This document shows positions 6,032 through 43,792 of a DNA stretch of 43,960 nucleotides, piece by piece. How positions within the stretch are numbered: the first letter of the stretch is position 1; each line of letters starts with the position of its first letter. The notes beneath the pieces are model-generated. The model made no database searches and was not told where the DNA came from. It saw nothing but the letters and a program-made list of their open reading frames with translations. Origin of the DNA: an uncultured Nitrososphaeraceae archaeon (GTDB lineage: Archaea > Thermoproteota > Nitrososphaeria > Nitrososphaerales > Nitrososphaeraceae); assembly GCA_963765895.1 (NCBI GenBank), contig CAVXZB010000068.1, positions 1-43,960 of the forward strand. The letters are read 5' to 3'. The position numbers were made by a program, and so were the translations under genes.

Positions 6032-8782
6032 TCATAAATAATTAAAATTATTTTCTTTCTGTTTTTGTATAACTTGAAGGGAATACATTAGCAAGTTCTT
6101 TGTAATTGCTGTTGTATGGCTATAATCATACTTTTCGACAAAGCAAGTTTCAGGGTTATTCAAATATTTATCAATCAAATGGTCTACAGAGATCTCTCCA
6201 CCATCTATATCAACCAATTTATAACAAGACTTTTTTTTGAAAATACTACCCCCCTCTTCTATATAATATTTTGACAATATTCTAAATTGTTTCTTCAAAA
6301 AGTTCTTACTAGGAAATATACCAGGATCTGATACCTTTAACCTAAGATCTTTGTTATCGTCAAACATTGAAAAGAGATTTCCTTCTTCATCGACAGGATA
6401 GTAGATATTCTGTCTACCATCTATCTCACTTTTGACCTTGTTTATTATACCTTGATTAATTAGTGGATAGAGAAACTTGTAAAGAATTGCTTGGCTACTT
6501 GGTTTTGAAACATTGAAGAATTGCTTGGTTTTCTCTGCTAACTGCTCTGTTGTAAGTCCAGGACGTTTTTCCTGCGCTAACACATTCCCGTTTTCATCTT
6601 TATCTACATTAGGATACCCATCAAGTTCTTTATATGCAATCGTAAACCCATTATTGAACCAGTCTGCTATATACGGCCTAATACCGCTAGCACCTATTTC
6701 CATTAGTTTTAATGTTTCCTTTAGATCATCAAATGTTGATATCGGATAAAATTTCCCATTATCTTCATTTACTAACTTGGGTCTACTGTCCATATTTGCT
6801 TTTGTTATAATTGAAAGATATTTCATCATCCTCTCAGTCACAGTCATATTCCATACCTGATTATTTGGAATGGAATCTACTATTGCCGCTTCAAATGGTA
6901 TTTTAACTCCTGATTGCTTTGGTTCAAAATGTTTGCTATGTTGTTTTAGTTTTGCTGTTAGAATTCGTATTATTTGCTTGGCCTTCTCCTTGTCATCTCT
7001 GCTAACTACAACTTCATCGTATTCTTCCTCAAGAGAGCCAAATTTATGGCCAATCAATCTTTTTGCTTCTTGTATCTTCTTCTCACTCGTATCTGGGGTT
7101 ACATGAATAAACCTTCTATTCTTTTCTTCAAAACGTGCTCCTTGTGTATCATCTATTACCCGTGTGCTAAACAATACAGGCATACCTCTCAAAATGTTAT
7201 TTTTTGTTCCCAATTTACCGGAGCCTGATTTCTCAACGTAAGAATATTTTTGGTCTTTAGCCGTATCCTGTGACATTAGACTCATTAACGCATCAAATAG
7301 CGAGTCCTGGGGAGTGTCTAGGCAAAGAATTATCTGGTTATTCAAGTCAATCAGTTTTTCTTCGCAAGATCGAATATACTTGATTTCAGATTCGATTTCC
7401 ATAATCTTATTCTTATTTTCTTTGATTAGATGTTTATTCCTTTCAACTGACTCTTTATCTTTTTCTGTGTTAATCTGTTCTTCTAATTCTTCAATCTTGC
7501 ACTCGAGGTTTTTTACGATGGGATCCGCAGGTTCAAGTTGCCCTGTTTCTTTGTTTTGTATTACCATTATTCCGTCCCTATGAAAAATCGCCTTATCAGA
7601 CATTCCAGATAGTATTATTACATACCTTTCTGGAAAATAACTAACTACTAGAACCAAAAGATAGGACTTGCCGGCTCCAGGATCCTTAGAATTAACGTTA
7701 TGTGGTATGGGAATTTTAGTAAATGCGCTACACATTCCGTAAAGTAATTGTTTTATGGATACTTCATCATATGGTGCTTCTTTTTTGATTGTATTAATGA
7801 CAAAATTGATATCTTGTTCTGTGAGCCGATTCTCTGTCGCAAGTTGTTCCTCTTCTTCCTCTCCTTCACCTGCTCCCCTATAATGATAATCTGTTGTTGC
7901 CGGCGATCCTTCTTCCTTTCTCTTTTTTGTAGAGTAAGTGACTGCATCTTTCCAAATTAAGTCTAGTTCTATTGCTGGGAGCGGTGGTTTGCATCTGTTA
8001 TTATTGATATCTACAAACCTAGATCTTAGTTCCTGTTCTTCTATCTTGCCATTTCCACCATATCGGAACAAAATGCTATTTGCGATACTGATCATTGAAT
8101 CATGTCTTTCCCCTTGGTAGATTTTTGCATCAGAGTCTAACAGATTTCTGTAATGTCTTTCTAAATATTCAATTCCATGTTTTTTGCATATTGTATCTAT
8201 ATGCTGCTTAAACTCTTTTGCCTGCTCTTGTGTTAGAACTATGGGTTCAGTTGTGCCCATAATCTCATATTGTTGTCCATTTCTATGAGATGAGTATGCA
8301 CAACATGCTATTCCATGTTCTCCCAATCCCTTAACCTCAAGCCCCAAGACTGAATCAGAATTTTTCTTTGGAAATGGTAATGGTGAGTAAAAATAGATGT
8401 GAGCCTTTTCTAGATTATCTTTATGCTGCTCTACTAGCAACTTCTGCGACATTTCTTGTAGTGTGGTCTTGTTTCCATTTCTTGAACACAGTTCATCTAT
8501 CGCTATTAATTTATCTGCATCCAAGAATGTGAAGTATAACCCTAGTTTATCCGCTCTATGCCAAACCTTACCTGGAATTATTGCAATCCCTTTAGAAAAC
8601 ATTCCTCGCTCTTTCCATGGTCTGTGAATCTCTTCAGGTATTGGCTTATTCTGCCATTCTTCCCAAGGAATTAATGGTCTCTTATTTCTTGTATCTGCTG
8701 GAATTACATTAACTCCAATGTCATTACGCCAATAATCAGCAAATCTATTTATCTGATCTAATTTTAGATTCTGAACTGTCAT
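6032..8782 (-). CDS. Replication protein: bifunctional primase-polymerase (Prim-Pol) + PriCT + P-loop helicase-like domain + C-terminal wHTH
   Basis: GVNVIPAD..NKRP...W, FLDAD, AHIYF (Prim-Pol); GERHDSM...NNRCKPPL...EL..IW (PriCT-1); GAGKS Walker A; NRRF putative Arg finger; LTTEQLAEK...LINQGII wHTH. Confidence 0.88.
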   Translation of the reverse strand: MTVQNLKLDQINRFADYWRNDIGVNVIPADTRNKRPLIPWEEWQNKPIPEEIHRPWKERGMFSKGIAIIPGKVWHRADKLGLYFTFLDADKLIAIDELCSRNGNKTTLQEMSQKLLVEQHKDNLEKAHIYFYSPLPFPKKNSDSVLGLEVKGLGEHGIACCAYSSHRNGQQYEIMGTTEPIVLTQEQAKEFKQHIDTICKKHGIEYLERHYRNLLDSDAKIYQGERHDSMISIANSILFRYGGNGKIEEQELRSRFVDINNNRCKPPLPAIELDLIWKDAVTYSTKKRKEEGSPATTDYHYRGAGEGEEEEEQLATENRLTEQDINFVINTIKKEAPYDEVSIKQLLYGMCSAFTKIPIPHNVNSKDPGAGKSYLLVLVVSYFPERYVIILSGMSDKAIFHRDGIMVIQNKETGQLEPADPIVKNLECKIEELEEQINTEKDKESVERNKHLIKENKNKIMEIESEIKYIRSCEEKLIDLNNQIILCLDTPQDSLFDALMSLMSQDTAKDQKYSYVEKSGSGKLGTKNNILRGMPVLFSTRVIDDTQGARFEEKNRRFIHVTPDTSEKKIQEAKRLIGHKFGSLEEEYDEVVVSRDDKEKAKQIIRILTAKLKQHSKHFEPKQSGVKIPFEAAIVDSIPNNQVWNMTVTERMMKYLSIITKANMDSRPKLVNEDNGKFYPISTFDDLKETLKLMEIGASGIRPYIADWFNNGFTIAYKELDGYPNVDKDENGNVLAQEKRPGLTTEQLAEKTKQFFNVSKPSSQAILYKFLYPLINQGIINKVKSEIDGRQNIYYPVDEEGNLFSMFDDNKDLRLKVSDPGIFPSKNFLKKQFRILSKYYIEEGGSIFKKKSCYKLVDIDGGEISVDHLIDKYLNNPETCFVEKYDYSHTTAITKNLLMYSLQVIQKQKENNFNYL

Positions 8783-8790
8783 ACTTCAAG

Positions 8791-8934
8791 TCAGGCCTTC
8801 TGAATAAGACAATGATTGCATCTAGTGCATTGGCAAACAATTCTATGATGAATTTCTGAATTTATCCAACTACCAGGGCATTCTTGACAATCGGGTATGC
8901 ACTCTTCTATAACAAGGTCAGGTATGGACTGCAA
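8791..8934 (-). CDS. Small Cys/His-rich putative Zn-binding protein (47 aa, TTG start, below ORF-track cut-off)
   Basis: MQSIPDLVIEECIPDCQECPGSWINSEIHHRIVCQCTRCNHCLIQKA*, stopping 8 nt before the Prim-Pol ATG; pattern resembles 40506-40730. Confidence 0.7.
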   Translation of the reverse strand: MQSIPDLVIEECIPDCQECPGSWINSEIHHRIVCQCTRCNHCLIQKA

Positions 8935-11764: not shown

Positions 11765-12623
11765 TACCAAAAAATAATATGAATAGGTACAAAGCGCAAT
11801 ATTGCAGAAATTTATTTTTGAAATGTAGAGAATTGAAATTACGAAAAGTTATGATATATTCATGATCATATTAATAGCCTATTTTCAATTCGGACAGCAG
11901 AAATCACTCTTTTTTGTCAATACGTCAAACTATAATAAAATATCACTCGGTATATTCCGATAAATGTTCTTTTTATCATAGTAATCTACCATTAATTTGG
12001 GTAAATATATTCATGGGATTTTACAGTAGGTACCTGTTATCATTACTTGGTCCTATATTCTACAATTACACTTCCGCAAGGTCTTCCACCGTTAGCTTTA
12101 ACGCCTTTTTTGATTTAAGTATACCGATTTATCATGGTTTTTTTAACCTTCGTAAAGAATATTAAGATAGATAAAGACCTTATTTTCTAATATAATAGGA
12201 TCTTTAAAGTATCTCCTACCCTAATTTGTATTATTCTTCATTTTAGGATGGCATTGATTTTTTAATATTACTGAGGCAATATTCATCGCATTTACAATTG
12301 AAGGTTGGCTCGTGTCAACTGTTATGTGTTCCCCCCTTACAGGTTCATAACATTCTTCATTCTATTGTAAATAGAAATATTGTTACTGATTAAATCAACA
12401 TAAATATAATCGGCCTGATTATAATTCATCTATTGTTTAGCATCAAATCCTTTGCTGCATTATAGCAAATAAGCATAAAGCAAAAGCCACCGCAAGACCC
12501 AGTCACATCTGCACTTGTGACCGCCATAACCAATATGGACAAATGCTTCATCTAGGATTAGGCCACAGACTAATAACTCCTGATAAAGCCAGATAATAGA
12601 AATAGACACCAGTTACTCTCTTC

Positions 12624-14330
12624 CTATTCCTGGAGTACTTTGTGAACAAAGGAGATTGCAATTGATCCTTCACCGACTGCAGATGCAACACGTTTGATGC
12701 TGCCGCCCCTCACATCACCTACTGCGAAAACACCGGGTAAACTGGTTTCAAGCAAGTATGGTTGATGGGTAAGAGACCAGCGTGTATCGGTCAGATTTTC
12801 TGGCAAAAGGTCGGGACCAGTCTTTATGAAGCCCTTAGCATCTAGCGCGATACAGCCATCAAGCCAGTGAGTATTTGGATCGGCACCGGTCATGACGAAT
12901 ATGTGCCTGATTTTATGTTTTTCAGTCTGTCCTGTTTGGCTGTTTCGCCAGTAGACGGAGTCAAGATGATTGCCTCCTTCTACTGCTACAATCTCTGTTT
13001 GTGGTCGCAATATGATCGTGGGAGTATTCTCTATCCTACGAATTAGATATCGTGACATAGTAGCAGCCAAACCAGTAGATCTGACTAGCATGTACACACG
13101 CTTTGCAGTCTGTGCTAAAAACACGGCAGCCTGGCCTGCTGAATTTCCTCCGCCTACTACAACTAATTCCTCTCCTCCGCACAACTGTGCTTCCACAAAG
13201 GTCGCACCATGGTAGACTCCTGCACCTTCAAAGCGTGACAGGTTGTCCAATGGAAGCTTTCGATACTGGGCACCAGTGGCAATTATAACAGTGTGAGTAG
13301 AAATTCTAGCACCATTCTCAAGCTCTATAACGTACGGTTTGCGGTCACAGATGAGTCTTGTGGCATTAGCAACGAGCATACGTGCACCAAACTTCTGTGC
13401 CTGGATGTATGCTCTAGCTGCCAGATCCTGGCCAGAAATACCTGTAGGAAATCCCAAGTAATTTTCGATCCTTGAGCTTGAACCTGCTTGACCACCAGGG
13501 GAATTTGTCTCCAGCATTAGGACATCTAGTCCTTCTGAAGCACCATATACTGCGGCTGCCAGTCCTGAGGGACCAGCACCGATGATTACAAGATCTCGAA
13601 CATGGGTTTGGTCAATAGACTCATTGAAACCAAGGCAGTTTGCGATTTCTTGGTTAGTGGGATTCCGAAGTGCAAGCTGGCCTCGACAGATTAATACTGG
13701 TATTTCACTGGCAGAAATTTGGAAACTATCCAACAGATTCTGTACGTCAGGGTCGCGTTCTAAATCTATGTAGGAGTATGGATGTCCATTGCGCATCAGA
13801 AACTCTTTGATCCGTAATGTACCTGCCGAATATGCTGACCCAACAAGGACAATATCTCCAACGCCAGCAGATATTAGTTCTACCCTACGAAGAATGAACG
13901 CCCGCATCAATATATCGCTGAGCTCAGTATCAGTCTGTACCAATCCGAGCATTTGCTGGTGATCCAGTTCAATTACTTTACCTGGCTTGGTAACACGTGC
14001 CCGAACTAAAGACCGTCGACCAGAGAGCATGTTAACCTCTCCTGTGAATTCACCAGGACCATGGACAGTAATAAGGGTCTCCTCGGCCCCTAAGGGACGT
14101 ACGATCTCGACTTCGCCTGTGGTTACGATAAAGAACGGTACTGACGTATCTCCCTGGTCTATTAGCACTTCGCCAGACTGCACCGAACGTACATGTCCAT
14201 GCACTGCAATGCGATCAATCCGAGCTGGAGTTAATTTCGGAAATATCTTCTCAATACGAGAGCTGGTTAGAGGAAGTCCTCTGCGTGCATTACTCATAGA
14301 AGTAGTTTCCTGTACGATTGCTCTTCGCAA
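12624..14330 (-). CDS. Cyclic-nucleotide-binding domain + thioredoxin-reductase-like FAD/NAD(P)H oxidoreductase
   Basis: cNMP domain (G.V..DQGD...GEV...GEF.GE), GAGPSG FAD motif, IENYLGFPTGISG, GGGNSA NADPH motif, ETSLPGVFAVGDVR. Confidence 0.93.
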   Translation of the reverse strand: MRRAIVQETTSMSNARRGLPLTSSRIEKIFPKLTPARIDRIAVHGHVRSVQSGEVLIDQGDTSVPFFIVTTGEVEIVRPLGAEETLITVHGPGEFTGEVNMLSGRRSLVRARVTKPGKVIELDHQQMLGLVQTDTELSDILMRAFILRRVELISAGVGDIVLVGSAYSAGTLRIKEFLMRNGHPYSYIDLERDPDVQNLLDSFQISASEIPVLICRGQLALRNPTNQEIANCLGFNESIDQTHVRDLVIIGAGPSGLAAAVYGASEGLDVLMLETNSPGGQAGSSSRIENYLGFPTGISGQDLAARAYIQAQKFGARMLVANATRLICDRKPYVIELENGARISTHTVIIATGAQYRKLPLDNLSRFEGAGVYHGATFVEAQLCGGEELVVVGGGNSAGQAAVFLAQTAKRVYMLVRSTGLAATMSRYLIRRIENTPTIILRPQTEIVAVEGGNHLDSVYWRNSQTGQTEKHKIRHIFVMTGADPNTHWLDGCIALDAKGFIKTGPDLLPENLTDTRWSLTHQPYLLETSLPGVFAVGDVRGGSIKRVASAVGEGSIAISFVHKVLQE

Positions 14331-14776
14331 ATCATCGCTAGGAGCTTTCTATCATATTCCATAGCGACAAGGGATATAGATATCATATTCTGTGATGGTT
14401 CTACAGTCTAATATGCTTGCTGTATATCAAATTGTATAGATTGTTGTAAGTACTATGTTTAAATCAACTTGCAAAGCGATTCTAATATATTGAATCATTT
14501 GCCTCACATACATTGCTCTCGCCAGCCAACCACGCCTAGATTAATGGTCGTCTTGTAATAAATATCACCGTCGTCAACCATCTACGTATGACATTCTAGG
14601 TGTGACATATTAGCAGTCCCCCATCTCGGCAAACAGCATTCTATGTGATACATATCTAATCGATGTATGATCTTTTTTGCATTCCATCATTATGTTACAA
14701 GAACAAATTATGAAAGGTGAACTTCTACAACACAAGGTCTCTTATAGGTAACGATTGTGTGTTATTAGTGCTTCAA

Positions 14777-15511
14777 TTAGATCTGCGCTGTGCCGCCATC
14801 GACGAATAGCTCGATGCCGGTAATGAAGAGGGAGTCATCAGATGCAAGAAAGAGCGCAGCGGTCGCGATTTCGTGCGGCTTGCCCATGCGACCCATTGGG
14901 ATTATGGAAACGAAGCCATCCACCATTTCTTGGGGAGTTCCATCAAATATCGCAGTATCTATCGTGCCGGGACTGATGACGTTGACCCTGATTCGTCCTT
15001 TGAGCTCCGCAGTCCAAGTTCGGGCAAATGAACGGACAGCCGCTTTGCTGGCGCTGTAGACAGTAGTGCCAGGAAATCCTTTTACTCCAGCAATAGAACT
15101 ATTCAAAATGATTGATCCGCCGTCCTTCATAAGCGGCAGAGCCTTTTGCACGGTAAACAGGGTCCCTCGAACGTTAACATTGAAAGTATCGTCGAAGCCC
15201 TTCTCGGTAATGGAGCCAAGTGGCTTACTGAGCTCGCCAACGCCGGCGCTAGCAAAGAGAACGTCGATGTGGCCCTTGTCCTTTTTGACTATATCGAACA
15301 TACGATCTAGGTCGGCAATCTTGCCGGCATCGCCCTGCACACCAGTGACGTTCTTGCCGATTTCTTTGGTTGCCTTATCGAGCCTTTCTTGTCTGCGGCC
15401 AGTGATGAAGACATAAGCACCTTCCTCGACAAATAATTTAGCAGTAGCAAGCGCCATCCCACTCGTAGCTCCAGTAATAACAGCTACTCTATTCTCTAAT
15501 TTGTTTGACAT
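14777..15511 (-). CDS. Short-chain dehydrogenase/reductase (SDR)
   Basis: TGATSGMA nucleotide-binding motif, catalytic YSASK, RVNVISPG. Confidence 0.95.
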   Translation of the reverse strand: MSNKLENRVAVITGATSGMALATAKLFVEEGAYVFITGRRQERLDKATKEIGKNVTGVQGDAGKIADLDRMFDIVKKDKGHIDVLFASAGVGELSKPLGSITEKGFDDTFNVNVRGTLFTVQKALPLMKDGGSIILNSSIAGVKGFPGTTVYSASKAAVRSFARTWTAELKGRIRVNVISPGTIDTAIFDGTPQEMVDGFVSIIPMGRMGKPHEIATAALFLASDDSLFITGIELFVDGGTAQI

Positions 15512-15689
15512 GGATTAAGGTAGGTACATAATGATTGAAATAAGTTAATGAAGTGTAATATGTCTTAGTTGCGATTTATTGAAGCATGACAAGAAGCGCA
15601 CTTCGTTTCATAACAATGCTTTGGGTATAATGCATGGCAATGTACACTTTGTACTGTTATTAACCATATAGTCTAAAACAATCGTACAC

Positions 15690-16703: not shown

Positions 16704-16918
16704 ATGAAGCAGGACATACACTTTAAAAAATATACAATGGCATAGAAATGAGTTGTATGGAGATTAGGGATTGCATTTGTTATTGACCCAAGATATACGA
16801 AGCTTATAATTGTGTTAAATACACTTCATAAATCTTCAGTTATGTGATCTTCTGATATATCTATATACTTCTATGTTATCAATGAGTTTCTGATTTAGTA
16901 TTTACAGCGATATTCTAT

Positions 16919-17785: not shown

Positions 17786-17863
17786 TCAACTTATACAATA
17801 CAAAGTTGAGATAGAACGCAACGTTCAATAGATTGGAATCTGCCTCAGTATGTTAGCTTTAGA

Positions 17864-32616: not shown

Positions 32617-32620
32617 ACTA

Positions 32621-32830: not shown

Positions 32831-32973
32831 AAAAAAATTAAGTGGAATGACAACTGACGGCGCTGCCAGTGAGATAACTTAGTCATAGTCAAACGGATGA
32901 ACAAATCACAAAATACACAAAGCTAGGAAGATAGCAGTCAGCAATCATTCGGCATCACTACCACGCTTACGTT

Positions 32974-34732
32974 CTACATTAAACGCTTTGCACCGTACGT
33001 AGGAAAAAATTCCTTTTCATAAATTGCTGCCGCTAAAGTCAATTTCACGTCTTCAAGTATTTCATCTAGCCTCTCTTTATTTCCATAGTTGAGTATCACT
33101 ATTGACGTTAATAAGCCATCGTCGCCTTCATTTATCTCATATTCGAACATTTCTGTCTCTTGTATTTGATTTGAAAGCAAAGCGAACTGGCATATTCGCT
33201 TTATTTTTCGAAGTTTCCTGGCTAAGATCGATTTAACTCCAAAGTTAACTGCTAAAGCGACTGTCCTCTCAGGGATAATACAAATTCGACTTTTCGATAT
33301 TTCCACGTTTGCGAGGATTCTTCCTTGCGGCGGGAGCCATCTATAATCATTTTTTAACTGCGCTTTTTGTATAATTTCTTCTTTTTTGACCTTATCAATG
33401 ATATTCTGATTTAATGTCTCACCACGTATAATTGAACTGTACGGACTCAGTCGCAATTCAACAGATGTTATTTCATAATCTCCATCAAAACCATAATACT
33501 CAGCCTCGGGTATTGCACAAGCCCCGACAACCTTAATACGGTCACCTTCGTGCAAATCACTCGCAAAATCACATCGGCCTACTAGCTTTATCTTTGCATC
33601 ATCTGCAGGACCGTCTGCTATGAGGGTATCTATGTACTGAACAATATTTTTGCCTACATGCCTTTCGTATATATCCGGTTCCTCGACCACAATTGCATCT
33701 AAAATATATAAATCGCCCCTGGACAGAGTAATGGTTTTTTTTATTTTCTCAATGTCAGAACGCATATTGGAGAGTGTTGGAAACGACGGATCGTTTATTA
33801 TTCCTCTGAGATAATCCATTTGAAAGATCCTGACATAAAACCTACCATATTCATTGGAATCCATAACAGTTGGTTCACATTCTATCATTGTATTTAATTC
33901 AATTCCATGACTGAGTAGCAAGCTGGAATCTATGACTGCCGCATACCAATTTGCTATATTGGGTGATACCAAGAAACAGATTAGTTCCCTCTTCCCTGCC
34001 CTCACTTATTGAGAGTACTCTTAGAGTCATAGCGTCCCTGACCTTCCTATCCACAGTTTTTCTTACTGATTCAAGTGAAAGCTTGCGTAATACGTCGTAT
34101 CGTACAGGACTAACATTTCCTATCTTTTTAAGAAATTTGATATAATATTCCCTTATTTCAAGGCGATCTAAACTACGAAGAAGCATAGCCCTGATAAAGT
34201 CCCGTACTTCGTGATTAAATCCACATTCAGAGCATGTGAACTCTGTTCTCACTGGAGCCATAGACCTAACTTTCTCAGAGCTGGAATTATCGATATTGAT
34301 GAATGCTTTTTCGAGAAATCGGACAATTAAAGCAAAGATGTGGTTTTGATCTAATCCGTCAGTTATCTGATCATACATGTCTAGAAAGTCTCTATTATAA
34401 TGAACGCTTCCTGGAGCAAACTGGAATTTGAAATTTTCCTCTTCGTTAGATATTGAATTTAAGTCCTCAAATAAGTATGGCGTTCTCGGTTTCTTTCCAG
34501 TGACTTTACCTGTAGGAGGTATGCCCCGCTTAGACTCCTTTCCTATACGAAGGAATCCATTTCTGAGGAGTTTTTTTACATTGTTATCCACCGTCGACTC
34601 TTTCATACTTTTGATATCGGCAATCTGTCGTATTGTTAAGGTATTAGGATAGGAGTCCTTCAGAAGATTCAGTACATTCCTTTGCTCGCTTTGTAGCGAT
34701 AGCATTAAGGGCACTCTCATTACTGCTAACAT
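32974..34732 (-). CDS. wHTH + CxxC + OB-fold (RPA-like) multidomain protein; probably one gene with a frameshift near 33940
   Basis: LTIRQIADIKSMKESTVDNNVKKLLRNGFL (wHTH); CSECG; TLIAD...IKLV.....DLHEGDRIKVVGA...ELRLSPYSSI (OB-like); the two ORFs overlap by ~100 nt. Confidence 0.7.
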
Positions 34733-35116
34733 CTTGGCAATAATAGCCCTCTATGTACCTTTTCATACTAGAAGATTAACTCTAAAACTTTTAAGTTTTT
34801 AATTTTGGTTTTGGAGATGATGTTCTTAATTATAAAAACTTTGGTAATATCTTGATTTGTTTATAATTTTTGTATGATAATAGTAGAACATTGGATAAGT
34901 TACATATATCAAGCCACATCTTGGCCTGGGAACATCCGTACCCAATAAAAAACCAGATTGGAAGGTATCTGGTAGAAGAAGGTGATGACCTTCATAGTAG
35001 TCTAACAGAAAACATTAGGGGTTTTTCATTATGTCCCTCATATTCCTTAAGGCAGCTCAGAGGGATACAGAGAAGAAAAAAGTTGCTATCTCATATTCGA
35101 ACAGGCTATAAGTGAA

Positions 35117-35871
35117 ATGAAATCAAAAACACCTAACTCTGCGAATCAAACATTGACAGAGAGTATTCTTGATTTAAAATTAATCTTGGAACAAAGGCAT
35201 CAAACACTAAAATACTATCCATAGTCCACAGCTGCCCCTGTCATACTAGGTGTGTCAATGATATTAAAAACAACGATCACAATAATGACATAGATAGGCT
35301 ATATATCGAAAGATATGATTATGTGAGAAAGAAAATCATTGACGCTATACAGGTTAACTTCGGCAGGTTGATGACAGTCAAATCCGAACATAAAATCAAC
35401 AATGAAACACTTGACATCGTGATAACATACGACAAGATACTTCTTGGCTATCATGAGAAAACTATCTACATTGAAATTAAAAGTGGCCAGTCAATCGATC
35501 TGTTCCAGATTGAGCGTTACTTGTACGAGAGTTACCTCCTGTTAGTGGTAAGAGTTCCCACAAGAGATATCGTTCCGATTCATCAGGCAAACATAGCTAG
35601 CGAATTGATAGAAGGTATCACATCCATGATACAAAAAATAGAATTATTGAGCGATAGCTCTTCGTTGAAAGTCCAGGGGGATTGGTGTAATGGATGCACT
35701 GCGAATTGTGAATTCAAGAAGAAAGAAAGAAACCACGCGGCTAAGCTAGAGTTTGAAGAATTCTTCAAAAATGTGAAGGCGGTTACACAAGAAACCGTCA
35801 GGGTTATAGGAGAAGAGATGAAGAAGATCCGAGACAGTTTTGGTGTGACTTCTAACACACGGCGATCTTGA
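35117..35871 (+). CDS. PD-(D/E)xK nuclease, RecB/Cas4-like, with putative Fe-S or Zn cysteines; frameshift in an A-run near 35210
   Basis: LDIVI...IEIKSG...QIERY (D, ExK, QxxxY); N-terminal SCPC and C-terminal CNGCTANC. Confidence 0.75.
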
Positions 35872-35962
35872 ATTGTTTCTAAAAAATCCTGTTATTGTAC
35901 GACTCGAAAAACCTTTCATCTGGAGAACATATATTCCTGAGTTTGGGACGCGCGAAGCTGTC

Positions 35963-36521
35963 ATGGAACTAGACATGGCTAAAAGACTCATTAGATATTA
36001 TAAGCGAAGTCTGCAAAAAACTTGCATATGATTTTTGGCTCCACGATACAAAATGTCTATTTGGGTGTATAGCCTGCGGCGAAGATGATCCCGACGGCTT
36101 GAACTTTCATCATTTAGGTGAAGAATACACAGGGATGAAAAAAGTAGATTCAATCTCTAGTATGGTGAAAAAACAGTTGCCGTTATATAGAATAGAGTAC
36201 GAAATGACAAAGTGTGCAGTCCTGTGTGCTACATGTCATCAAAAAATTACAAGAGGTGGTAAACGAGCATTGGACGATCTTTACGATATGAATGAGAGAT
36301 ATTATGGCTATTTTTTCGCACCTGGGGAAGATTGTGAAGAGACAAGAGCTAATCGTAGGGACTTTAGAAACAATCTAAAATCAATACCTATTGAAATCAT
36401 AGCTTCATTTGAAGATGAGTTTCTTCATAAGTGCAGAACTACACAAGAGGATGAAGAGGAAGAAGATTCCCTCGAGGAATCATCATATGCAGCGAAACGT
36501 AAAGAAGTAGACTGGAAATAA
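35963..36521 (+). CDS. HNH endonuclease (Zn-finger type); frameshift in an A6 run near 36018
   Basis: GCIACGEDDP..LNFHH...IS.MV...I..E..KCAVLCATCH; the reading frame may begin as early as ~35873; acidic tail. Confidence 0.8.
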
Positions 36522-36591
36522 TATACCATCTCAAATTTTATGTTCGAAAAAGTCGCTGTTAATGATCTGTATAACATAGAGGAATAAATCG

Positions 36592-36879
36592 TCTTAGCTG
36601 ATACAAATAAGCTTGAAAATTCTCTAGCCAGAGCAGGATTGAGATATTCATATTGAAAAGGTAATTGTAACATTTGAATTTGCGTCAGGTGATGATTATT
36701 GTCGTTACTGTCAAGCAGTTAGTGCATCTGCTCATATTGTGTTATCTAAAGAAACTGAAGATAGAAGAGAAGAGATCTGGAGAAAAGTGGCAGAAGAAGC
36801 AACGCGCAGTTACGGAACTGCTAACGGAGTTATAAAAATGGATAATGAATCAATATGTATTGTTGGAACACGACCATGA
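36592..36879 (+). pseudogene. C-terminal remnant of a class I SAM-dependent methyltransferase-like gene
   Basis: LAD.NKLENSLARAG / DIHIEKVIVTFEFASGDDY...EEIWRKVAE...G.IKMDNESICIVG resembles UbiE-like methyltransferase C-termini; 5' part missing. Confidence 0.6.
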
Positions 36880-36940
36880 TAGCAATCTAACTTGCACATT
36901 GATGGGTGGAGGAGTACTGTCATGGTTGTTATTTGGATTA

Positions 36941-37433
36941 CTAATTTCCTTCATATGCTTGCTTTAGAGTTTTTATGTCGAGCTTATGCATCTGAAGCAT
37001 TACCTTCATGACTCTCTCTGATTTCTCAGTGTCTTTGTCCTTTAGCATCTGGATCAAAGCTGTTGGAACAATTTGCCACGAGACTCCATATTTATCCTTG
37101 AGCCAACCACACTGCTGCGCTTTTTCATCGCCACCCTCAGAAAGTTTCTTCCAATAATAGTCCACTTCTCCTTGAGTCTCACAATGAATCTGAAATGAAA
37201 TGGCTTCGTTGAACTTAAATACTGGGCCACCATTGAGTGCTACAAACTTTTGTCCTTCAATTTCGAATTCCATAGTCAAAACTGAACCTTCTTTTCCTCC
37301 ATGAATCTTGTATCACTCTTTCCCATAGTGGGTAACGTCACCAATCTTTGAATTTTTGAAAATGGAGGCATAAAACTTTGCTCGCCTCCTCTGCTTTATA
37401 ATCGAACCACAAGCATGGAGTTATTTTCTGCAT
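36941..37433 (-). pseudogene. VOC/PhnB-like (3-dmu-9_3-mt family) protein, disrupted
   Basis: MQKITPCLWFD.KAEEA, then a frameshift (~37383) and an in-frame TGA (37313-37315); FVALNGGP.FKFNEAISF...CGWLKDKYGVSWQIVP. Confidence 0.9.
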
Positions 37434-37916
37434 ACTCGCAATAATATATAGAGTACAGTTTATAAATACACAAGGGATCAAAAGTATAGTGAATGTAGTT
37501 ATCGCTAACTCTCAGAATCTCTCTTTCATTTGATCAGAAAAGAATACGCTCGAATACGAATCGTCATATGAATTCAGATATTTTCATTAGTTCTCTTGCA
37601 TCGATATATTATATCAGATAGTCTTTCATTATGAATCTGGTTTCTGGTAATGAGTATGTAGTTCGCCGGCGAAATGCGCATAGATCGTCAGTAAGAATCT
37701 TAGAGTATACAGAATAGCCATAACGGATTATGGTCCCTTAACCATTTGTTCCCGGCGAACATGAATCCCCCCACCCTTCGTCATGATCATGATGAGCCGT
37801 CAAATTCTATTCGCCGGCGAAATACATTACCTATGAATATAACTACCGTAGTACTACAAATAAAGAATTGGTTATGTGCTGACGATTATCACATCAAGTT
37901 GAATCGTCCCTTAAAC

Positions 37917-39042
37917 TTAATTCATAAACCTTGAATAAAACATTTGTTTTAACTGCCTAACCTCTTCAGTTAGATCGTGAATCTCTTTAGCGGGTAGAAG
38001 TATGCTGTCCAATGCCTGGACTAAAGGACTGCCTATTGTAAGTGAATTCTCCAGCCTGCAAACAGATCTATCATGTAATGACTTGATATACATCCTGAAT
38101 ATCTGACCTGCGTATTTTAATTGAATATCAGGCAGATATAGTTGAGCTCTCGCGTCTATTTCGATATCCTTGTTCAGATCACATTCTTTCAGAATCCACT
38201 CTGTGATTAGTGGAATACCTCTTTCTCGGATATCAGATACATTATATATTAATCTGTCCCTGACTTGTCCGAAGAACGAAAATAGGATAGATATATCTTC
38301 ATCGTCTTCTAGCTTAAATGGAGTATCGCTGCCTTCGAATTGCTATTTGGACGCGTCCATTAGGCGAAAAGGTGTAAGTAACGTGTCTCCGGCCAATATT
38401 TTCTTCATGAAGTTTAGCTCGGTTTATTGACGCGGCCTTATTTGTTAGATCTTGGTAATAATTCTTATCTATGGATAACATCAATTGTAGCTTATGGATA
38501 TGTAGTTGTGTATATGGCAGCTGGATTAATACTTCAAGGAATGATTGGGCCTTCTGGTATCCGACGACATTGGATAGTGCGTCTCCACGGTCTGGGAAGT
38601 TGGATTGGTTAGATGGGTTGGATATGTTGTATAGGCTAGATCCCGTGGGTTCAACTTGTACATTTCTTGATCTTTTCTTCAAGTCTTCAACTATGTCGGA
38701 TTTAATACAAGCCGGAAAGTACTGCTGTGGATTGGTGTTTTGTATCAAGTATATCCCCTGTGAAATGAGATCCCCTCCAGTAAAGAGTACGTGACGATCA
38801 TGAAAGTGTTTCAAGCTCCTCTGAACCCGAGTCTTTCTAAGAGAAAACCCTTTTTGTAAATCTTTAAATGTAATTCCCTTTCTACAGGTTCTATATTTTT
38901 TAGTGGCAAGATCTTCAATTATTTTTCTTGTTATTCGCTGACCAGCTATTGGTTCATGTGCTAGTCGATGATCTTGTACATCCAGATCAGAATCAACTTG
39001 TACATTTCGAGATTCACAATTTGGATAAGCGTTACTAACCAT
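37917..39042 (-). CDS. Putative replication initiator (N-terminal wHTH; C-terminal Rep_trans-like motifs); frameshift near 38340
   Basis: ORF 38314-39042 continues in another frame as SDTPFKLEDDED...WILKECDLNKD...FRMYIKS...CRLE...FMN* (stop at 37917). Confidence 0.65.
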
Positions 39043-39045
39043 AGG

Positions 39046-39748
39046 CTAAGGAGTATTGAAAATATCGGCTACCACTTTTACCATAATTCCCATGCTATCA
39101 AATGTTATGTAGGTAAAGTACTTACTCTCGGTCATTGCTTCCTTAATTATATTATAGTTCTCCCTCGGAATCATGAATTCCATTTCGGTCGGCTGGACCT
39201 GACTGGCTATCATCATTCTTGTTTGCCTCGCAAATGCTTCCTTCAGTTGCCTATTTTCTTCCTGTAGTATTTGATAAGGATCATGCCTGTCGGAAGTCTC
39301 ACAATCGTGCCTTTCAAGCTTTTGAACTTGATGTAACTGTAGCTATATTTTCTCTATTGTTGGAAGAACCGTCATGTCCTGCGTCATGATTGATAAGTAG
39401 TGCACTTCCATCGCCATTATCAACTATATTGCCACTTTGAGCTTTAGCTTTTTCGAGCTGGTTTGAAAGCGAACTCCGTTCGCTTTTACGTGCGTATTTT
39501 CGTTTATACTCTGAGGGTAGACATTCCTCAATCCATTTCTCGGTGATTTTATGTTCCTTAATCTTGTCAGCTAAAACTTTTTTGATTTCGGCAGAAATTT
39601 CAGTTTTCTCACACCTGCCTTCGTCATCGAATCTTCTGGCTATCTCTTGTATCAGATCTTTGGCCCGCACAAAGTTATCATTAATGCGATCTATGACAGA
39701 TCTTAAGTCTTCAATAATTCTGGTAACGGCTATCTCTTCATTATTCAA
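39046..39748 (-). CDS. Hypothetical element protein (helical, coiled-coil); frameshift near 39320
   Basis: IS.EIKK.L.DKI...KIT.KWIEECLPSEYKRKY; continues as LQEENRQLKEAF...VADIFNTP*, ending 3 nt before the next ATG. Confidence 0.75.
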
Positions 39749-39898
39749 CTTTAGTTCTCACTTGTCCTTTTCGCTCTTTACTATGACATTTAAAGTAAGA
39801 CCTATCTTGGAAACCAAGATCATCTAACACTCGAATACACATTGGAGGTAACGAATTCTTATATTCTAGACTTGAGTCTAGGATAATCGGCATCAACT

Positions 39899-40270
39899 TC
39901 AACTTGAATCCCTGTCCATGACATCATACATTTCACGCTCTATGCTCTGCCATCTTCTATAGAGTTCTTTCGTAACATCTCTATAAATCCAAGTATCTAT
40001 TAGTCGTGTAAAGCCACCGTTCATCATAGATTCAAAATTATCATCTGATATTATTTCGCCCAGCTTTTTTGATGTATGTAGACATATTTGTCTAATTGCA
40101 GCTATATAATGCGTATATGCCTTGTCTCTATCTTTTGCATCAATATAGCGCGTAAATGCTTTGTCTCGATCTGCGATACTTTTTTCGAATAAAGCATTGA
40201 TTTCTTTTTCATAATCACGCTTGTTGTATTCAATCTTTTCTTTAGTGTGTATATCATCTATGTTAGCCAT
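39899..40270 (-). CDS. Hypothetical protein
   Basis: 123 aa, ATG abuts the upstream stop; internal repeat DRDKAFTRYI/DRDKAYTHYI. Confidence 0.7.
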   Translation of the reverse strand: MANIDDIHTKEKIEYNKRDYEKEINALFEKSIADRDKAFTRYIDAKDRDKAYTHYIAAIRQICLHTSKKLGEIISDDNFESMMNGGFTRLIDTWIYRDVTKELYRRWQSIEREMYDVMDRDSS

Positions 40271-40564
40271 TTACGGAATCACCTTTTCAATTACTAATTT
40301 CTTGCCATCGACAGTACATTTCAAAAGATCTCCCCTACCAATTCCTGGTCCTACGGCAAATTCATTGGGCAAACCATAGATATTATGATAATGAATAGCT
40401 GTCTTCAATGTATTGACAAAGCCCGGATGAACATAGTTAGATATATCTGGCTTTGATTCGGTAATATTACTCTCGTGCGAAGAGTAAAGATTATAGCTAT
40501 CTTGTTCACGTAAGATGTCCGTGGTGGTTATGGTATTTAACCTCCGAGTTTGATACCTGACCAT
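40271..40564 (-). CDS. AbrB/MazE/SpoVT-like DNA-binding protein
   Basis: LP.EFA...GIGRGD.LKCTVDGKKLVIEKV is a swapped-hairpin pattern; start uncertain. Confidence 0.6.
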   Translation of the reverse strand: MVRYQTRRLNTITTTDILREQDSYNLYSSHESNITESKPDISNYVHPGFVNTLKTAIHYHNIYGLPNEFAVGPGIGRGDLLKCTVDGKKLVIEKVIP

Positions 40565-40730
40565 TAGAAGAGATAGGTTGTATCTGAACCCGACCTAACT
40601 CTTCGTTCCTTGAATGACAACAACAATTACACTTAGCTTGAAGTCCTAGACCTTCCCATAATTGAACGCATGCTGAATGTGATGAATTCCTACAATCTCT
40701 GCTGAGGAATTCAATGTTAGTTGATATCAA
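40506..40730 (-). CDS. Small Cys/His-rich putative Zn-binding protein
   Basis: C....H..C...W.G.G....CNCCCH. Confidence 0.65.
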   Translation of the reverse strand: MISTNIEFLSRDCRNSSHSACVQLWEGLGLQAKCNCCCHSRNEELGRVQIQPISSNGQVSNSEVKYHNHHGHLT

Positions 40731-40952
40731 TCTAGGAACTATCCCATCCTTTTATTTCTAGAAGTAGATCCAATAATGTCTAATGCTGTTGTGAGTAGAC
40801 CATCAACTGCGGAATTCAATGAAAGTTTTTGAATCGTTGCATACTTCTTTACTTCTCCCCACGTTACTGAGATTAACGTCAATTAGGGTTTTCATTTATA
40901 TTTTATAATAGATTTAAGATTTATAAGCGTGGGGTTCTAGTGGTTAATTGGA

Positions 40953-42653
40953 TTGCAGACCCCACTTTCATATTATGAAGATTGGTATGATTCTAAGCGA
41001 AGGAAGCCTAATCTACAGATAAGGATCTTGAAAATGGTAACAAATAGAGGAAGATTAGCAATATGCGAAGCCGAGTCCTTCCTTGGAGGCCAGCGTATTC
41101 ATAAAGAGGTTTGGCAGTCTTTCAAGATCCTAGAAGAGAAGGGACTGATCAAGGAAATGCGAGATAGGAACCCTGGGCCTGGTCAGTTAATAGGTAAAGG
41201 TATGCCTAGAAATTATTATACCGTAACAGAGTACGGGCTTGTTGCATTAATCAAGGAAGGCCTTCATCCCTTACAATTCTGGAATATGCTCATAACTTAT
41301 TCTTCTGTCAAATTAAAGCAGGATCAGGGGTTAGATAGTATAGAAAGGATCTATGAGTTATACTTACGTCAATATCTAAAGTATTCAACAGGATTTGATT
41401 ACAATATTATTCTTCAGCTGGATCATTTCAATAAAATGTGCAAAGAATGGATTTATGGGAATACTTCTAGAAATGGCCCAATTACGTTAGCACAGAAGAT
41501 CTTGGAAATACTTGCACTAGCGGCTTCACATGATGGAATGACCATACAAGAGTTAAGTGCTAAAAGTAAAGAGGATCAAGAAAGCGTTAGAAAAGTTCTC
41601 CGGCAATATGCTTCAATCCCATCATATGAAAACCGACTTCTTCCAGACGAGTTTGTGAGCCTGGAACTAGATCTAGAGGACGCAATCCAACGAAATATTA
41701 TAATGGTCCAAATTACTAACAACGTCAAAAAATATTCTTTATCGTTATTCGGAATACTGTTAGTTCTTAATCTTGTACGATATCGCAATAGTCATCAGCG
41801 AAATCTTTACCCTCTCGGTAATTATTCGGTTCAAGAGGCATTCGACATAGTATCAACAAATTACAAGAACAAACTTCCTCTCATATTCGGCCAATGGGAT
41901 ATGTTAAAGGATATGTTGAAATTAAGTTCAGTCTATAACTTTGATGTCATAATTGATAGACATGCTCGTTCGAATTTTCTTCAAGGATCGGTCGTAATGA
42001 ATGGCAATAAGGAATACTATGAAACAATTCGAGATATAACTTTGTATAATAGAAAAAAGATGATGGATCTCTACAATGCAGGGATAACAGCGCTAACACG
42101 TCTCCATTCGAATATTGAAAATAAGGAAAATAATAATCGATACCGGGAGAACCCAAATACCTTGGCAATATACAGAAAGTTAATCGAAATTGGAGTCCTG
42201 CTTGGATATCATTTAAATCCTAGGACAATAGCAGGACTATCTACTGATAGTAAAGACGATCTTAGTTATGTCTATGATATAGAAGATATACCTAATACAA
42301 ACGTGTTGGAAAGATCATTTGCATATGAAATTACCTTTCTATATTATCTGAATCTGAATTCAGACTTCTTTTTTCCAATATTTTTTCCTCCTAATGATTA
42401 TCACCTTCAAGCAAATGCTCCTCAACCTTCAGAGAAGACAAAAGAGGAATGCTCCGCGAGACAGGCGGATGGATATTCGCCGGCGACACAAAAGACAAAC
42501 ACCTTACCGAAATCGCCAAGGGAAAGACTTACAGCTATTCTAAAAAAGAATAGGCAAGTGAAGGAGTGGTTTTCGAATTGTATAAACAACTGTATACAAT
42601 TCCGAAATGCGACGGATGAAATTATGTATAGATTCTATAGAGACATTAGCTAA
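40953..42653 (+). CDS. Large hypothetical protein with two wHTH-like segments
   Basis: QIRILKM...SFKILEEKGLI...YYTVTEYG and KILEIL....GMTIQELS...YSLSLFG; 566 aa, intact. Confidence 0.8.
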   Translation: MQTPLSYYEDWYDSKRRKPNLQIRILKMVTNRGRLAICEAESFLGGQRIHKEVWQSFKILEEKGLIKEMRDRNPGPGQLIGKGMPRNYYTVTEYGLVALIKEGLHPLQFWNMLITYSSVKLKQDQGLDSIERIYELYLRQYLKYSTGFDYNIILQLDHFNKMCKEWIYGNTSRNGPITLAQKILEILALAASHDGMTIQELSAKSKEDQESVRKVLRQYASIPSYENRLLPDEFVSLELDLEDAIQRNIIMVQITNNVKKYSLSLFGILLVLNLVRYRNSHQRNLYPLGNYSVQEAFDIVSTNYKNKLPLIFGQWDMLKDMLKLSSVYNFDVIIDRHARSNFLQGSVVMNGNKEYYETIRDITLYNRKKMMDLYNAGITALTRLHSNIENKENNNRYRENPNTLAIYRKLIEIGVLLGYHLNPRTIAGLSTDSKDDLSYVYDIEDIPNTNVLERSFAYEITFLYYLNLNSDFFFPIFFPPNDYHLQANAPQPSEKTKEECSARQADGYSPATQKTNTLPKSPRERLTAILKKNRQVKEWFSNCINNCIQFRNATDEIMYRFYRDIS

Positions 42654-42679
42654 AGAATGCTATTCGAGGAAAACAGCAC

Positions 42680-43792
42680 CTAATTCTTTATGTACGGCTT
42701 TAGCTGTCCTGAATCGATTAAGGACTGTATCAATAATTCAAATTCTTCCTGCTTCCTTACCAATGTCTGAATCTGTTGATCCTTTTCTTGCAGCTGTGCC
42801 GAAATGTCGGCGCCCCGTCTTTCTAGCTGTTGATAATCAAGAAATGTCAGATACGGCTCAATTTTTCGAAATAAAGCAGCTTTTTCATCAACTGTACGTC
42901 GGTAGTAAGTATAAGAACTATGTCCAATCATAAACTCAGAAAAGTCGCCGTAGCCTAGATCCGAGATAGTAGATTTAACAAAACGCCTCATAGAATGTAA
43001 TGTAATACGCCGGCGTCTACCATGATCAACCTCTTCCCTGTCACCCATGCCCATTCTATCTAATGTTTTGCCAAAGTTGGCAGCAAACTGATTGTATAAT
43101 CCCTGAATATCTGGGTTGCTTCTATTCACCGAGAATAATAAATCATGATCATTCCTTTCTAGGGTTTTATATTCAATAAGAGTCTTACCACTTTTCTCAT
43201 CTTTGGAACATATCCTGCGAGTGCGATGCTTATATTCTAACCATAATGAAAGTTGATGTACTGATTCCTGAGTTAAGAAAACAAATCGAGAAACCTTTGT
43301 CTTTGTGTACTCACCTCGTATATGTAATCTTGGGGGGTTGGCGATCAGATCATAGTCAATTAATCTTGTACATAGTGCCTCAGATGCTCTCATTCCAGTA
43401 GATGCAAGTAACATAACATAAGTCTTTAGTCTGATGTCAGAACACGCATTTATTATATTTGTGATATCTTCCTTAGTTAAAGCTTGTATATCTTTACGAA
43501 CCACCCTTGGTAGTTTTACTTTGAGCTTATATTTCCGTGGGCTAATATCGACATCGAAATATTCAAGAAAGTTCTTTGCAGTCGTTATTCGTTGTTTTAG
43601 TGTTAATGTAGATATGGCGTTACTTGTTTGGAGATATGCAATATAATTACATAAAACCTCATAGGGATCATGCAAGCTTTCTTTAATCATCTTTATGAGT
43701 TCGTCTAAGGTCAGTTTATATTCCATCATAGTAAAAGTGGCAAAGTTATGTAGTCTAAAACGATACTCGCGGGCTGATGAAGCGCTCATCAT
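42680..43792 (-). CDS. Tyrosine recombinase/integrase
   Basis: Catalytic set TGMRASE (R), TKTK (K), LHSMRR (HxxR), IGH (H), YYR (Y); C-terminal coiled coil; frame open to ~43927, so the true start may be upstream. Confidence 0.95.
   Translation of the reverse strand: MMSASSAREYRFRLHNFATFTMMEYKLTLDELIKMIKESLHDPYEVLCNYIAYLQTSNAISTLTLKQRITTAKNFLEYFDVDISPRKYKLKVKLPRVVRKDIQALTKEDITNIINACSDIRLKTYVMLLASTGMRASEALCTRLIDYDLIANPPRLHIRGEYTKTKVSRFVFLTQESVHQLSLWLEYKHRTRRICSKDEKSGKTLIEYKTLERNDHDLLFSVNRSNPDIQGLYNQFAANFGKTLDRMGMGDREEVDHGRRRRITLHSMRRFVKSTISDLGYGDFSEFMIGHSSYTYYRRTVDEKAALFRKIEPYLTFLDYQQLERRGADISAQLQEKDQQIQTLVRKQEEFELLIQSLIDSGQLKPYIKN

Follow-up and report, generated by a model that had tools for sequence, protein, structure and literature searches.

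Iterated short palindromes such as HIP1, the REP sequences, uptake sequences and the global operators of plasmids have each revealed dedicated DNA-handling machinery. HIP1 (highly iterated palindrome 1; GCGATCGC) is a GC-rich octameric palindrome that recurs over whole cyanobacterial chromosomes at about one copy per kb and has a cognate m5C methylase. The KorB operator OB, a 13-bp palindrome with about a dozen copies on IncP-1 plasmids that is not known from the host chromosome, is bound by one dimeric protein for both global control and partition, and its copies are found next to promoters, distant from promoters and inside genes. Repetitive extragenic palindromes (REP), together with bacterial interspersed mosaic elements (BIME) and REP doublets forming hairpins (REPIN), are imperfect palindromes of 20-40 nt that are strictly extragenic, distributed genome-wide and associated with a Y1 transposase (RAYT), and the GC clusters of yeast mitochondria are mobile, GC-rich, CCGG-containing palindromic elements of 30-50 bp in AT-rich DNA. 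Here we describe an iterated GCCGGC palindrome in a 43,960-base stretch of DNA from an uncultured Nitrososphaeraceae archaeon (hereafter the window; GenBank assembly GCA_963765895.1, contig CAVXZB010000068.1) and compare it with these systems. The excess of this palindrome is restricted to accessory islands and specific to one word; its sites keep fixed offsets from a small Zn-ribbon gene, the pattern is replicated in other species, and the extended form of the palindrome is selectively retained. From these observations we infer a dimeric, sequence-specific factor that would bind the sites to control, insulate or mark the islands.

Soil ammonia-oxidising archaea account for much of soil nitrification, are not yet genetically manipulable, and have large, poorly understood accessory genomes. 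The cryptic integrated elements of thaumarchaea, which carry prim-pol and integrase genes and cargo that includes response regulators and metal or redox enzymes, resemble the window in these three respects, and main-text passages of the paper describing them mention neither an iterated palindrome nor a multi-copy small zinc-ribbon gene (Krupovic et al. 2019, PMC6563490). The initial annotation of the window knew of no description of the motif, and full-text literature searching, which did not cover the supplements of PMC6563490, likewise found none for this palindrome or for any iterated short palindrome in Thaumarchaeota.

A GCCGGC excess restricted to accessory islands

The window is the whole of contig C68 in a genome assembly of 4.91 Mb (88 contigs, numbered here with the prefix C; 36.8% GC; 88% complete). 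It contains 25 GCCGGC sites between positions 7670 and 43014, compared to a mean of 1.60 and a maximum of 5 in 100 dinucleotide-preserving shuffles, and 11 copies of the octamer CGCCGGCG (at 15241, 17475, 22384, 23212, 24820, 25585, 31456, 37664, 37812, 42478 and 43008), for which the same shuffles give a mean of 0.03 and a maximum of 1. Recounting reproduced exactly the 25 hexamers and 11 octamers, with their positions, that had been reported in the initial annotation, and the low random expectation put forward there is confirmed by the shuffles. The excess persists both after dinucleotide correction and after duplicated segments are collapsed (437 sites reducing to 338 flank contexts in the latter case); its loss in either would, by the initial annotation, have refuted the proposal. 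Flanks of the form Y..R (YGCCGGCR) are present on 21 of the 25 window sites. Longer symmetric forms, all placed as originally described, comprise the 12-bp palindrome TTCGCCGGCGAA at 31454..31465, 37662..37673 and 37810..37821 and a perfect 16-bp palindrome, AGTTCGCCGGCGAACT, at 24816..24831. The four near-misses listed beside them, at 22438 (TTCGCCGGAT), 23269 (ATCGCCGGAT), 24756 (TTCGCCGGAA) and 37748 (TTCCCGGCGAAC), all prove to be half-site matches, and the last of these forms a local array with site 37665 and, as its third member, the palindrome at 37810. Sites are found both in and between genes, as had been claimed: long open reading frames (ORFs; 21.6 kb) hold 8 sites where 1.1 are expected, and the remainder (16.3 kb) holds 17 where 0.54 are expected, so that noncoding enrichment in the window is 31-fold and coding enrichment 7-fold. 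Coding sites use every frame, being read as Ala-Gly, Pro-Ala or Arg-Arg.

Genome-wide counts give a different picture from those of the window. The assembly contains 477 GCCGGC and 54 CGCCGGCG in total, whereas Markov models (both-strand counts halved) predict 192, 357 and 391 hexamers at first, third and maximal order, respectively, and 3.8, 9.2 and 44 octamers. Ranked by the ratio of observed to third-order expected counts (1.34), GCCGGC is only fourth among the hexamer palindromes of this genome. The window, by comparison, represents 0.9% of the genome DNA yet contains 11 of the 54 octamers, and its site density of 0.57 per kb compares with 0.04-0.10 per kb on large contigs. Four or more sites are present in 49 of 942 overlapping 10-kb windows, the excess being confined to about 5% of the genome; these dense windows lie on C68, C73, C29, C9, C77, C83, C85, C71, C20, C33 and parts of C84. 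Within the window itself, 23 of the 25 sites fall in a motif-dense mosaic accessory island at 12000..43960. Importantly, C84 is a 576-kb contig that carries an archaeal 16S gene as well as motif-dense islands, and the islands therefore belong to the chromosome rather than to a second organism. The same does not hold for C48:2046-8321, which has 10 of the 54 genome octamers, 66% GC and a bacterial 16S gene (RF00177, 1604 bits). This segment is part of the 66% GC start (C48:1-about 9000) of an otherwise archaeal 163-kb contig; it includes the complete bacterial 16S gene and reflects either contamination of the bin or a chimeric join, and the first 10-kb window of C48 alone contains 38 GCCGGC. 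Removal of the foreign stretch leaves 44 archaeal octamers in 4.9 Mb. The excess is a local feature of mosaic accessory islands and not a genome-wide word.

These distributions bear directly on the initial annotation, which had called the motif HIP1-like. The likeness stands insofar as the word is, as in HIP1, a GC-rich octameric palindrome iterated above expectation that occurs in intergenic DNA and, through synonymous choice, in all coding frames, that has a conserved extended form, and that recurs in related species. It fails on genomic range: HIP1 occurs about once per kb, whereas here 44 archaeal octamers in 4.9 Mb are confined to about 5% of the genome, the hexamer as a whole reaches only 1.34 times third-order Markov expectation, and its density falls from 0.56 per kb near Zn-ribbon genes (see below) to 0.073 per kb elsewhere. 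A further difference is that the flank preference extends to 12-14 bp, with no C5 methylase or Vsr endonuclease found. We regard as very unlikely a HIP1-type process in which a GCCGGC/CCGG cytosine methyltransferase and biased short-patch repair cause the word to accumulate. Such a process would fit the observations that sites arise in genes via synonymous transitions and that decayed forms are mostly transition products (GCCAGC, GCTGGC and GCCGGT being among the commonest), and genes for N4/N6 methyltransferases are present, with eight PF01555 matches of unassigned specificity in the genome. The search for a cognate enzyme, however, returned no C5 cytosine methylase (PF00145) or Vsr in this 88%-complete genome, nor an NgoMIV-type nuclease, although the model used for the latter matched no control genome either, and the methyltransferase link proposed for the motif gains nothing from it. 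In addition, background sites occur at about 1.3 times Markov expectation and are not conserved, and a cellular methylase would act genome-wide, leaving an island-restricted excess unexplained. The 12-14 bp over which flanks are preferred also argue against this process.

Fixed placement around a Zn-ribbon module

The marker of these islands is a module of about 250-260 bp consisting of a TATA-like box (CTATATATAGC) followed, about 35 nt on, by an ORF of 64-67 codons with two CxxC pairs. The window has two copies, at 16936-17183 and 24419-24670. In the latter copy, the conserved TATA-like box (ATATATATAGC; 24429..24439, plus strand) precedes an intact orphan Zn-ribbon gene of 67 codons (CLFCN...RCNTC; 24469..24672, plus strand), and the former is a decayed copy (16945..17184, plus strand) in which the box at 16945-16955 is followed by an ORF at 16985-17149 with its second half out of frame. 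Searches of the genome with tblastn identify 31 loci, and a profile gives 39 matches; these are mostly on motif-dense contigs, and stop codons are present in many of the copies. The encoded protein matches no Pfam family above threshold and has no informative neighbour among PDB profiles or in the ESM Atlas, and just 18 relatives exist among 5.8 billion proteins, all of them unnamed or annotated as "hypothetical". Its predicted structure is a three-stranded ribbon plus a helix, albeit with low confidence (pLDDT 57). A search of 31 genomes found members of the family in the genome under study, in all six others of its genus and in a single additional genus, but none in 23 other genera.

Using these genes, we defined islands without reference to the motif as the DNA within 3 kb on either side of a Zn-ribbon gene, with the core module removed (157 kb). 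Site density is 0.56 per kb at 3 kb or less from a Zn-ribbon gene and 0.073 per kb elsewhere, and this neighbourhood, 3.4% of the genome, accounts for 92 of the 439 sites that remain once the foreign C48 stretch is left out. Of all 2080 island hexamers GCCGGC is the most enriched (92 observed versus 11.5 expected, 8-fold, z 23.7), and the next four, CCGGCG, CCGGCA, CGGCGA and GGCGAA, overlap the motif. The top island octamers are CCGGCGAA (17.6-fold) and GCCGGCGA (14-fold), followed by GCCGGCAA. Island GC is 0.380 compared to 0.367, and other all-GC hexamers in the islands are only 0.6- to 2.3-fold enriched, which indicates one specific word with the half-site CCGGCGAA rather than GC-richness.

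Sites are also placed at preferred distances from the module. Fourteen of the 31 units in this genome have a site at -135 to -80 relative to the gene start, about 65 bp 5' of the TATA-like box, and 15 carry a site at +230 to +400; the downstream sites at about +290 to +360 fall in a conserved box, AGTATTTCTTG.T.TGTTCGCCGGC, which is often trailed about 35 bp on by a second GCCGGC. Several units have extra sites near -144, -310 and -365, within a noncoding block of about 200 nt. In the intact window unit, the conserved "-110" site (GCCGGC, 24364..24369) is 105 bp 5' of the Zn-ribbon start and about 65 bp 5' of the TATA-like box, and the "+290 to +360" position is occupied, in degenerate form in this copy, by the half-site TTCGCCGG (24756..24763) in the conserved downstream box AGTATTTCTTGATCTGTTCGCCGG. 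The perfect 16-bp palindrome at 24816 lies about 150 bp 3' of the intact ORF and belongs to a box family, GTAGTTCGCCGGCGAAMTGC. Blocks of the noncoding type, which we term family A and which are found 5' of Zn-ribbon units in several islands, occupy 22315..22460 (minus strand; about 200 nt in the family; sites 22328 and 22385, half-site 22438) and, as a second copy, 23147..23300 (minus strand; site 23213, half-site 23269). The second copy is split from its Zn-ribbon unit by an insertion sequence (IS) at 23363..24335 on the plus strand, which encodes a DDE_Tnp_1 transposase, has about 66 genomic copies, and is inserted in the unit between the upstream block and the -110 site. For the decayed module copy, an octamer lies 3' of it at 17475..17482 and marks a module boundary held in common with 31456. 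Homology common to all units spans only about -60 to about +200, and the sites therefore outlast flanks that have diverged past BLAST recognition.

The IS (about 970 bp, with a 294-residue transposase) is active or recently active, many of its copies being 98-100% identical. It was considered as the carrier of the motif and ruled out, as no site is present within 23363-24335.

This arrangement is replicated in related species, although the related genomes are not independent samples. GCCGGC is present at -85 to -121 in 8 of 13 Zn-ribbon loci from other metagenome-assembled genomes (MAGs); in a set of 23 loci from related genomes, some of them MAGs of the first set, the "-110" site is found in 11, mostly intact and high-scoring copies, and the +230 to +400 site in 4. 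The top hexamers in 111 kb of non-redundant foreign Zn-ribbon DNA are CGGCGA, CCGGCG, GGCGAA, GCCGGC and CCGGCA, with GCCGGC fourth of 2080 when the density in the genome under study serves as an approximate background. Moreover, the decamer TCGCCGGCGA has 4-9 copies in each of the six same-genus genomes compared to 0-1 for a reversed control, and it is bunched there on a few contigs, several of which also have a Zn-ribbon gene. Islands are likewise present in MAGs from at least five separate assemblies.

Selective retention and a putative binding site

Grouping by flanking sequence places the 437 testable sites in 338 clusters, 101 of them with a member in a dense neighbourhood, and with so many distinct contexts the excess is not accounted for by duplication. 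Among non-redundant island sites T is favoured at -2 (0.52) and C or T at -1 (0.74), a preference that background sites lack. The preference is shared by the two half-sites with dyad symmetry, and the information covers about 12-14 bp. Retention was measured by aligning diverged paralogs with flank identity of 0.60-0.92 and asking if the partner keeps the hexamer. For island YGCCGGCR sites the partner keeps the hexamer in 70 of 126 pairs (0.56), 2.6 times as often as it keeps control hexamers of these alignments (0.22), and background YGCCGGCR sites are retained in 18 of 53 (0.34) compared to 0.23. Taken by class, retention points to the extended palindrome, essentially in islands, as the functional unit. 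Individual genes show how the site is gained or kept at the level of codons. The octamer at 43008..43015 falls in the minus-strand integrase gene 42680-43792, and its site 43009 encodes Arg-Arg-Arg as CGC-CGG-CGT; the closest paralog of this integrase uses CGT-AGA-CGT for these three residues, and the two proteins are identical over 26 residues. The octamer at 15241..15248 lies in a short-chain dehydrogenase/reductase (SDR) gene, 14777-15511 on the minus strand, where site 15242 reads AGC-GCC-GGC and four SDR paralogs read AGT-GCT-GGC, two synonymous changes away. At site 15323 of the same gene GCC-GGC is invariant in five island paralogs even though neighbouring third codon positions vary. 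A coding explanation, by which the word would derive from Phe-Ala-Gly-Glu or Met-Arg-His-Glu-Val-Asn-Ala-Gly peptides, was rejected, the frames being broken at differing places between copies.

It is highly improbable that the excess is a passive by-product of paralog amplification, local GC content, codon pairs (Ala-Gly, Pro-Ala or Arg-Arg) or foreign DNA, a proposal already contradicted by the flank contexts, the noncoding enrichment, the word-specificity and the retention. Many sites do lie within paralogous families, some read Ala-Gly in real small proteins or in P-loop or SDR motifs, ten genome octamers came from the bacterial contaminant stretch, and island GC is slightly higher (0.380 versus 0.367). 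Against this, however, the 338 contexts are independent, other all-GC hexamers are barely enriched, enrichment is 31-fold in noncoding versus 7-fold in coding DNA, reading frames are broken in the noncoding families, and the extended form is selectively retained, while the islands are present both on the contig with the archaeal 16S gene and in MAGs of at least five assemblies. One of the small proteins concerned, a small membrane peptide, is encoded by a 35-codon ORF at 20093..20200 (minus strand), a member of a multi-copy island family in which site 20156 is read as Ala-Gly. This peptide and a second at 31817-31936 (also minus strand) are hydrophobic, 35-40 residues long and of the type ..IAGGLG.., with GCCGGC encoding Ala-Gly; they have paralogs on C9, C20, C73, C69, C77 and C71 and are reminiscent of small membrane toxins.

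Of the three roles suggested for the motif in the initial annotation, protein binding fits best, recombination plays a minor part and methylation is unsupported. We tentatively propose, as a reading that is quite possible but falls short of probable, that the palindrome is a recognition site for a putative dimeric DNA-binding factor controlling or marking island DNA; some probability is kept for an explanation not yet considered. The consensus gTTCGCCGGCGAAc, with YGCCGGCR as the functional form and CCGGCGAA as the half-site, would represent the dyad-symmetric core of a putative cis-acting protein-binding site. Such a site would belong to lineage-specific mosaic islands in one soil Nitrososphaeraceae genus, not to the whole genome. 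Besides flanking the Zn-ribbon module, its copies form loose arrays where spacers are poor in ORFs, and they are also found within some island genes. Binding of the putative dimeric factor to these sites might then control, insulate or mark the island DNA, and the co-amplified Zn-ribbon protein would be the obvious candidate reader. The KorB operator is the closest functional analogy, being likewise a palindrome iterated over accessory DNA, near promoters, distant from them and in genes. Unlike for KorB, no ParB- or KorB-type gene is linked to the islands (the genome has six ParB_N matches, none tied to islands, the nearest at C73:69 kb being just outside one), and the islands are chromosomal and mosaic.

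Several observations weigh against a binding site of this kind. Of the 56 non-redundant island YGCCGGCR sites, 39 lie at a distance of over 700 bp from the nearest Zn-ribbon gene, and these far sites show no preferred distance to a TATATA box; a distance of 60-70 bp to such a box is seen only at sites near Zn-ribbon genes, and the fixed relation to the TATA-like box accordingly holds only for the Zn-ribbon unit. Site-to-site spacing has no sharp period, and the in-gene sites (8 versus 1.1 expected) are unlike what a simple promoter operator predicts. Retention over all sites (0.296) is within the range of control hexamers 20-60 bp away (0.21-0.33), and it is neutral both for island sites without Y..R flanks (30 of 173, 0.17, versus 0.24 in controls) and for background sites of all forms (24 of 140, 0.17, versus 0.22). 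The retention ratios also overstate significance because paralog pairs and related genomes are not independent. Finally, the Zn-ribbon protein that is the candidate binder belongs to no known family and is modelled with low confidence (pLDDT 57). A scan for sigma-70 promoters and terminators found nothing linked to the sites, but this bacterial model is not applicable to archaea.

A bolder version of the binding-site proposal, which we consider rather doubtful, is that the iterated palindrome TTCGCCGGCGAA serves as an "address label" of a mobile gene pool in soil ammonia-oxidising archaea and is read by the orphan Zn-ribbon mini-protein, the two together marking the islands, silencing or insulating them and helping in their exchange. 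If true, these archaea would have a chromosomal equivalent of plasmid global operators or of self-tags of the uptake-signal type, and the reader protein would be of a new class. The unit to which the motif is tied is defined and testable: a 12-bp site, a box resembling a promoter and a Zn-ribbon protein of 67 residues. The motif also provides a simple sequence flag for this class of island in metagenome bins. Even if the binding reading is wrong and the word is just the signature of a mobile pool, it would still be of practical use for recognising DNA that this genus has exchanged horizontally.

Mosaic junctions, a possible mobile cassette and window genes

Most of the window between 12 and 44 kb consists of diverged paralogous copies of DNA elsewhere in the genome, arranged as a patchwork, and this raises the possibility, unlikely in our estimate, that island modules are shuffled by site-specific recombination in the manner of integron attC or Xer/pdif, with the palindrome as the point of crossover. 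The patchwork of paralogous blocks is itself in keeping with this idea, as is the presence of a tyrosine recombinase gene in the window, and some block ends do coincide with sites. A 1,070-bp mosaic block, 36595..37664, is 99.7% identical to C73:38943-40012 and has its right end at the 12-bp palindrome 37662..37673, exactly between TTC and GCCGGC; beyond this point C68 and C73 differ in family but share the box GTAGTTCGCCGGCGAAMTGC, and contigs of independent sequencing runs also branch at 37664. Homology between 17473-17785 and 31454-31759 starts at the octamer, in the latter case with the first base of the 12-bp palindrome, and in a third copy (C41/C43) the homology runs on across this boundary. 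In addition, an SDR paralog on C73 is interrupted, 3-4 bp from a mutated site, by an insert of about 260 bp that brings a TATA-like box and a very small CxxC..CxxC ORF. Over all islands, blocks that are 90% or more identical have 156 unique ends, 5 of which come to within 6 bp of a site when 0.96 are expected (p=0.007), and for the ends of all high-scoring segment pairs 19 are within 20 bp of a site versus 7.2 expected (p=0.0025). This last test, however, is open to the anchoring of alignments by the shared motif, and 151 of the 156 sharp block ends fall away from any site. Homology among Zn-ribbon units, moreover, stops at about -60 and about +200 rather than at sites, none of the seven paralogs of the window integrase is in a motif-dense area, and 12-14 bp of information is short for the core site of a tyrosine recombinase. 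A few crossovers would be expected from micro-homology alone. Four soil sequencing runs, all from a single study, contain about half of the window as short contigs at 1-9x depth, which neither show nor exclude inversion or excision; no joints at palindromes are present in these contigs, and one joint, from 34084 to 37337, is unrelated to the motif. The palindrome is an occasional crossover point and not the main junction of the mosaic, as would be expected where otherwise unrelated modules have one 12-26-bp box in common. On the binding-site proposal, a box common to unrelated modules might act in just this way and add to the mosaic.

The bracketing of the Zn-ribbon module by sites at fixed distances on both sides raises a second possibility, namely that the module is a non-autonomous transposable cassette with GCCGGC-GAA as its terminal repeat and/or duplicated palindromic target, in which case solitary perfect palindromes would be end-to-end junctions or footprints. 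We consider this quite unlikely. Read inward, the consensus is GCCGGCGAA..GATC for the box on either side of the module, and the roughly 31 module copies, many of them decayed, would suit a mobile element; nevertheless, the upstream half-sites lack an orientation bias (15 forward, 14 reverse, 9 both), the downstream box alone being oriented (3 forward, 16 reverse, 5 both). Homology between module copies ends inside the sites and not at them, and no transposase is linked to the module. Empty sites of the module were not found. A solo downstream box without a gene, at 20935-20958, looks like the result of deletion or recombination rather than of clean insertion, and 39 of the 56 non-redundant island sites have no module nearby. 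The insert in the SDR paralog is a second mini-cassette with a TATA-like box, and its insertion beside a site would be in line with transposition; its other two copies, however, show no consistent target. This mini-cassette combines the box with a CxxC..CxxC ORF of about 45 codons and is found at C73:5904-6162, C48:44079-44308 and C84:359935-360139; the C73 copy is inserted 3-4 bp from the position matching window site 15242, and no consistent target sequence is shared among the three copies.

Like REP, BIME and REPIN sequences, the sites are short repeated palindromes that form clusters and arrays, chiefly in extragenic DNA, but the core here is only 8-16 bp, 8 of the 25 window sites are within long genes, the distribution is island-restricted and no Y1_Tnp was found (PF01797 gave 0 matches in this genome, whereas the control matched in 6 of 14 genomes). 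The GC clusters of yeast mitochondria share with the sites their GC-rich palindromic character, their location in ORF-poor spacers and their presence at recombination breakpoints; here, by contrast, the palindrome itself gives no sign of moving and keeps fixed offsets around a gene module.

The relatives of the window genes are all in Nitrososphaeraceae MAGs from soil. Island cargo includes a TrxR-like flavoprotein with a cNMP-binding (cyclic nucleotide-binding) domain, the SDR, a zinc-dependent alcohol dehydrogenase, a tyrosinase, a Cache sensor and a response regulator. A prim-pol gene is located at 6032-8782, a wHTH protein of the island is encoded at 33899-34732, and the tyrosine recombinase (integrase) gene already mentioned is at 42680-43792 on the minus strand. 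Rfam families were not matched anywhere in the window. Positions 1-7621, which include part of the prim-pol gene and are motif-poor, have a 99-100% duplicate on contig C67, representing either assembly redundancy from two strains or a very recent duplication. Multi-kb stretches of the window lack long ORFs. A comparable region, C83:11604-15482, has seven GCCGGC in 4 kb holding one ORF of at least 80 codons, and these motif-dense spacers (C83:11604-15482 and 19.8-25.8 kb of the window) suggest graveyards of decayed cassettes or noncoding functions. The ORF at 25824-26669 (minus strand; 281 residues) matches no Pfam family and contains repeats of about 49 residues (147-bp period; ..VWWIG..G.V.G..); it looks like a repeat protein of the beta-propeller type, and, as it adjoins the tyrosinase gene at 26768-27781, it is possibly a partner of the tyrosinase. 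Lastly, tandem CTAGA/CTAGT units that are palindromic and hairpin-like are present at 32620-32645, directly after the ORF at 32299-32616.

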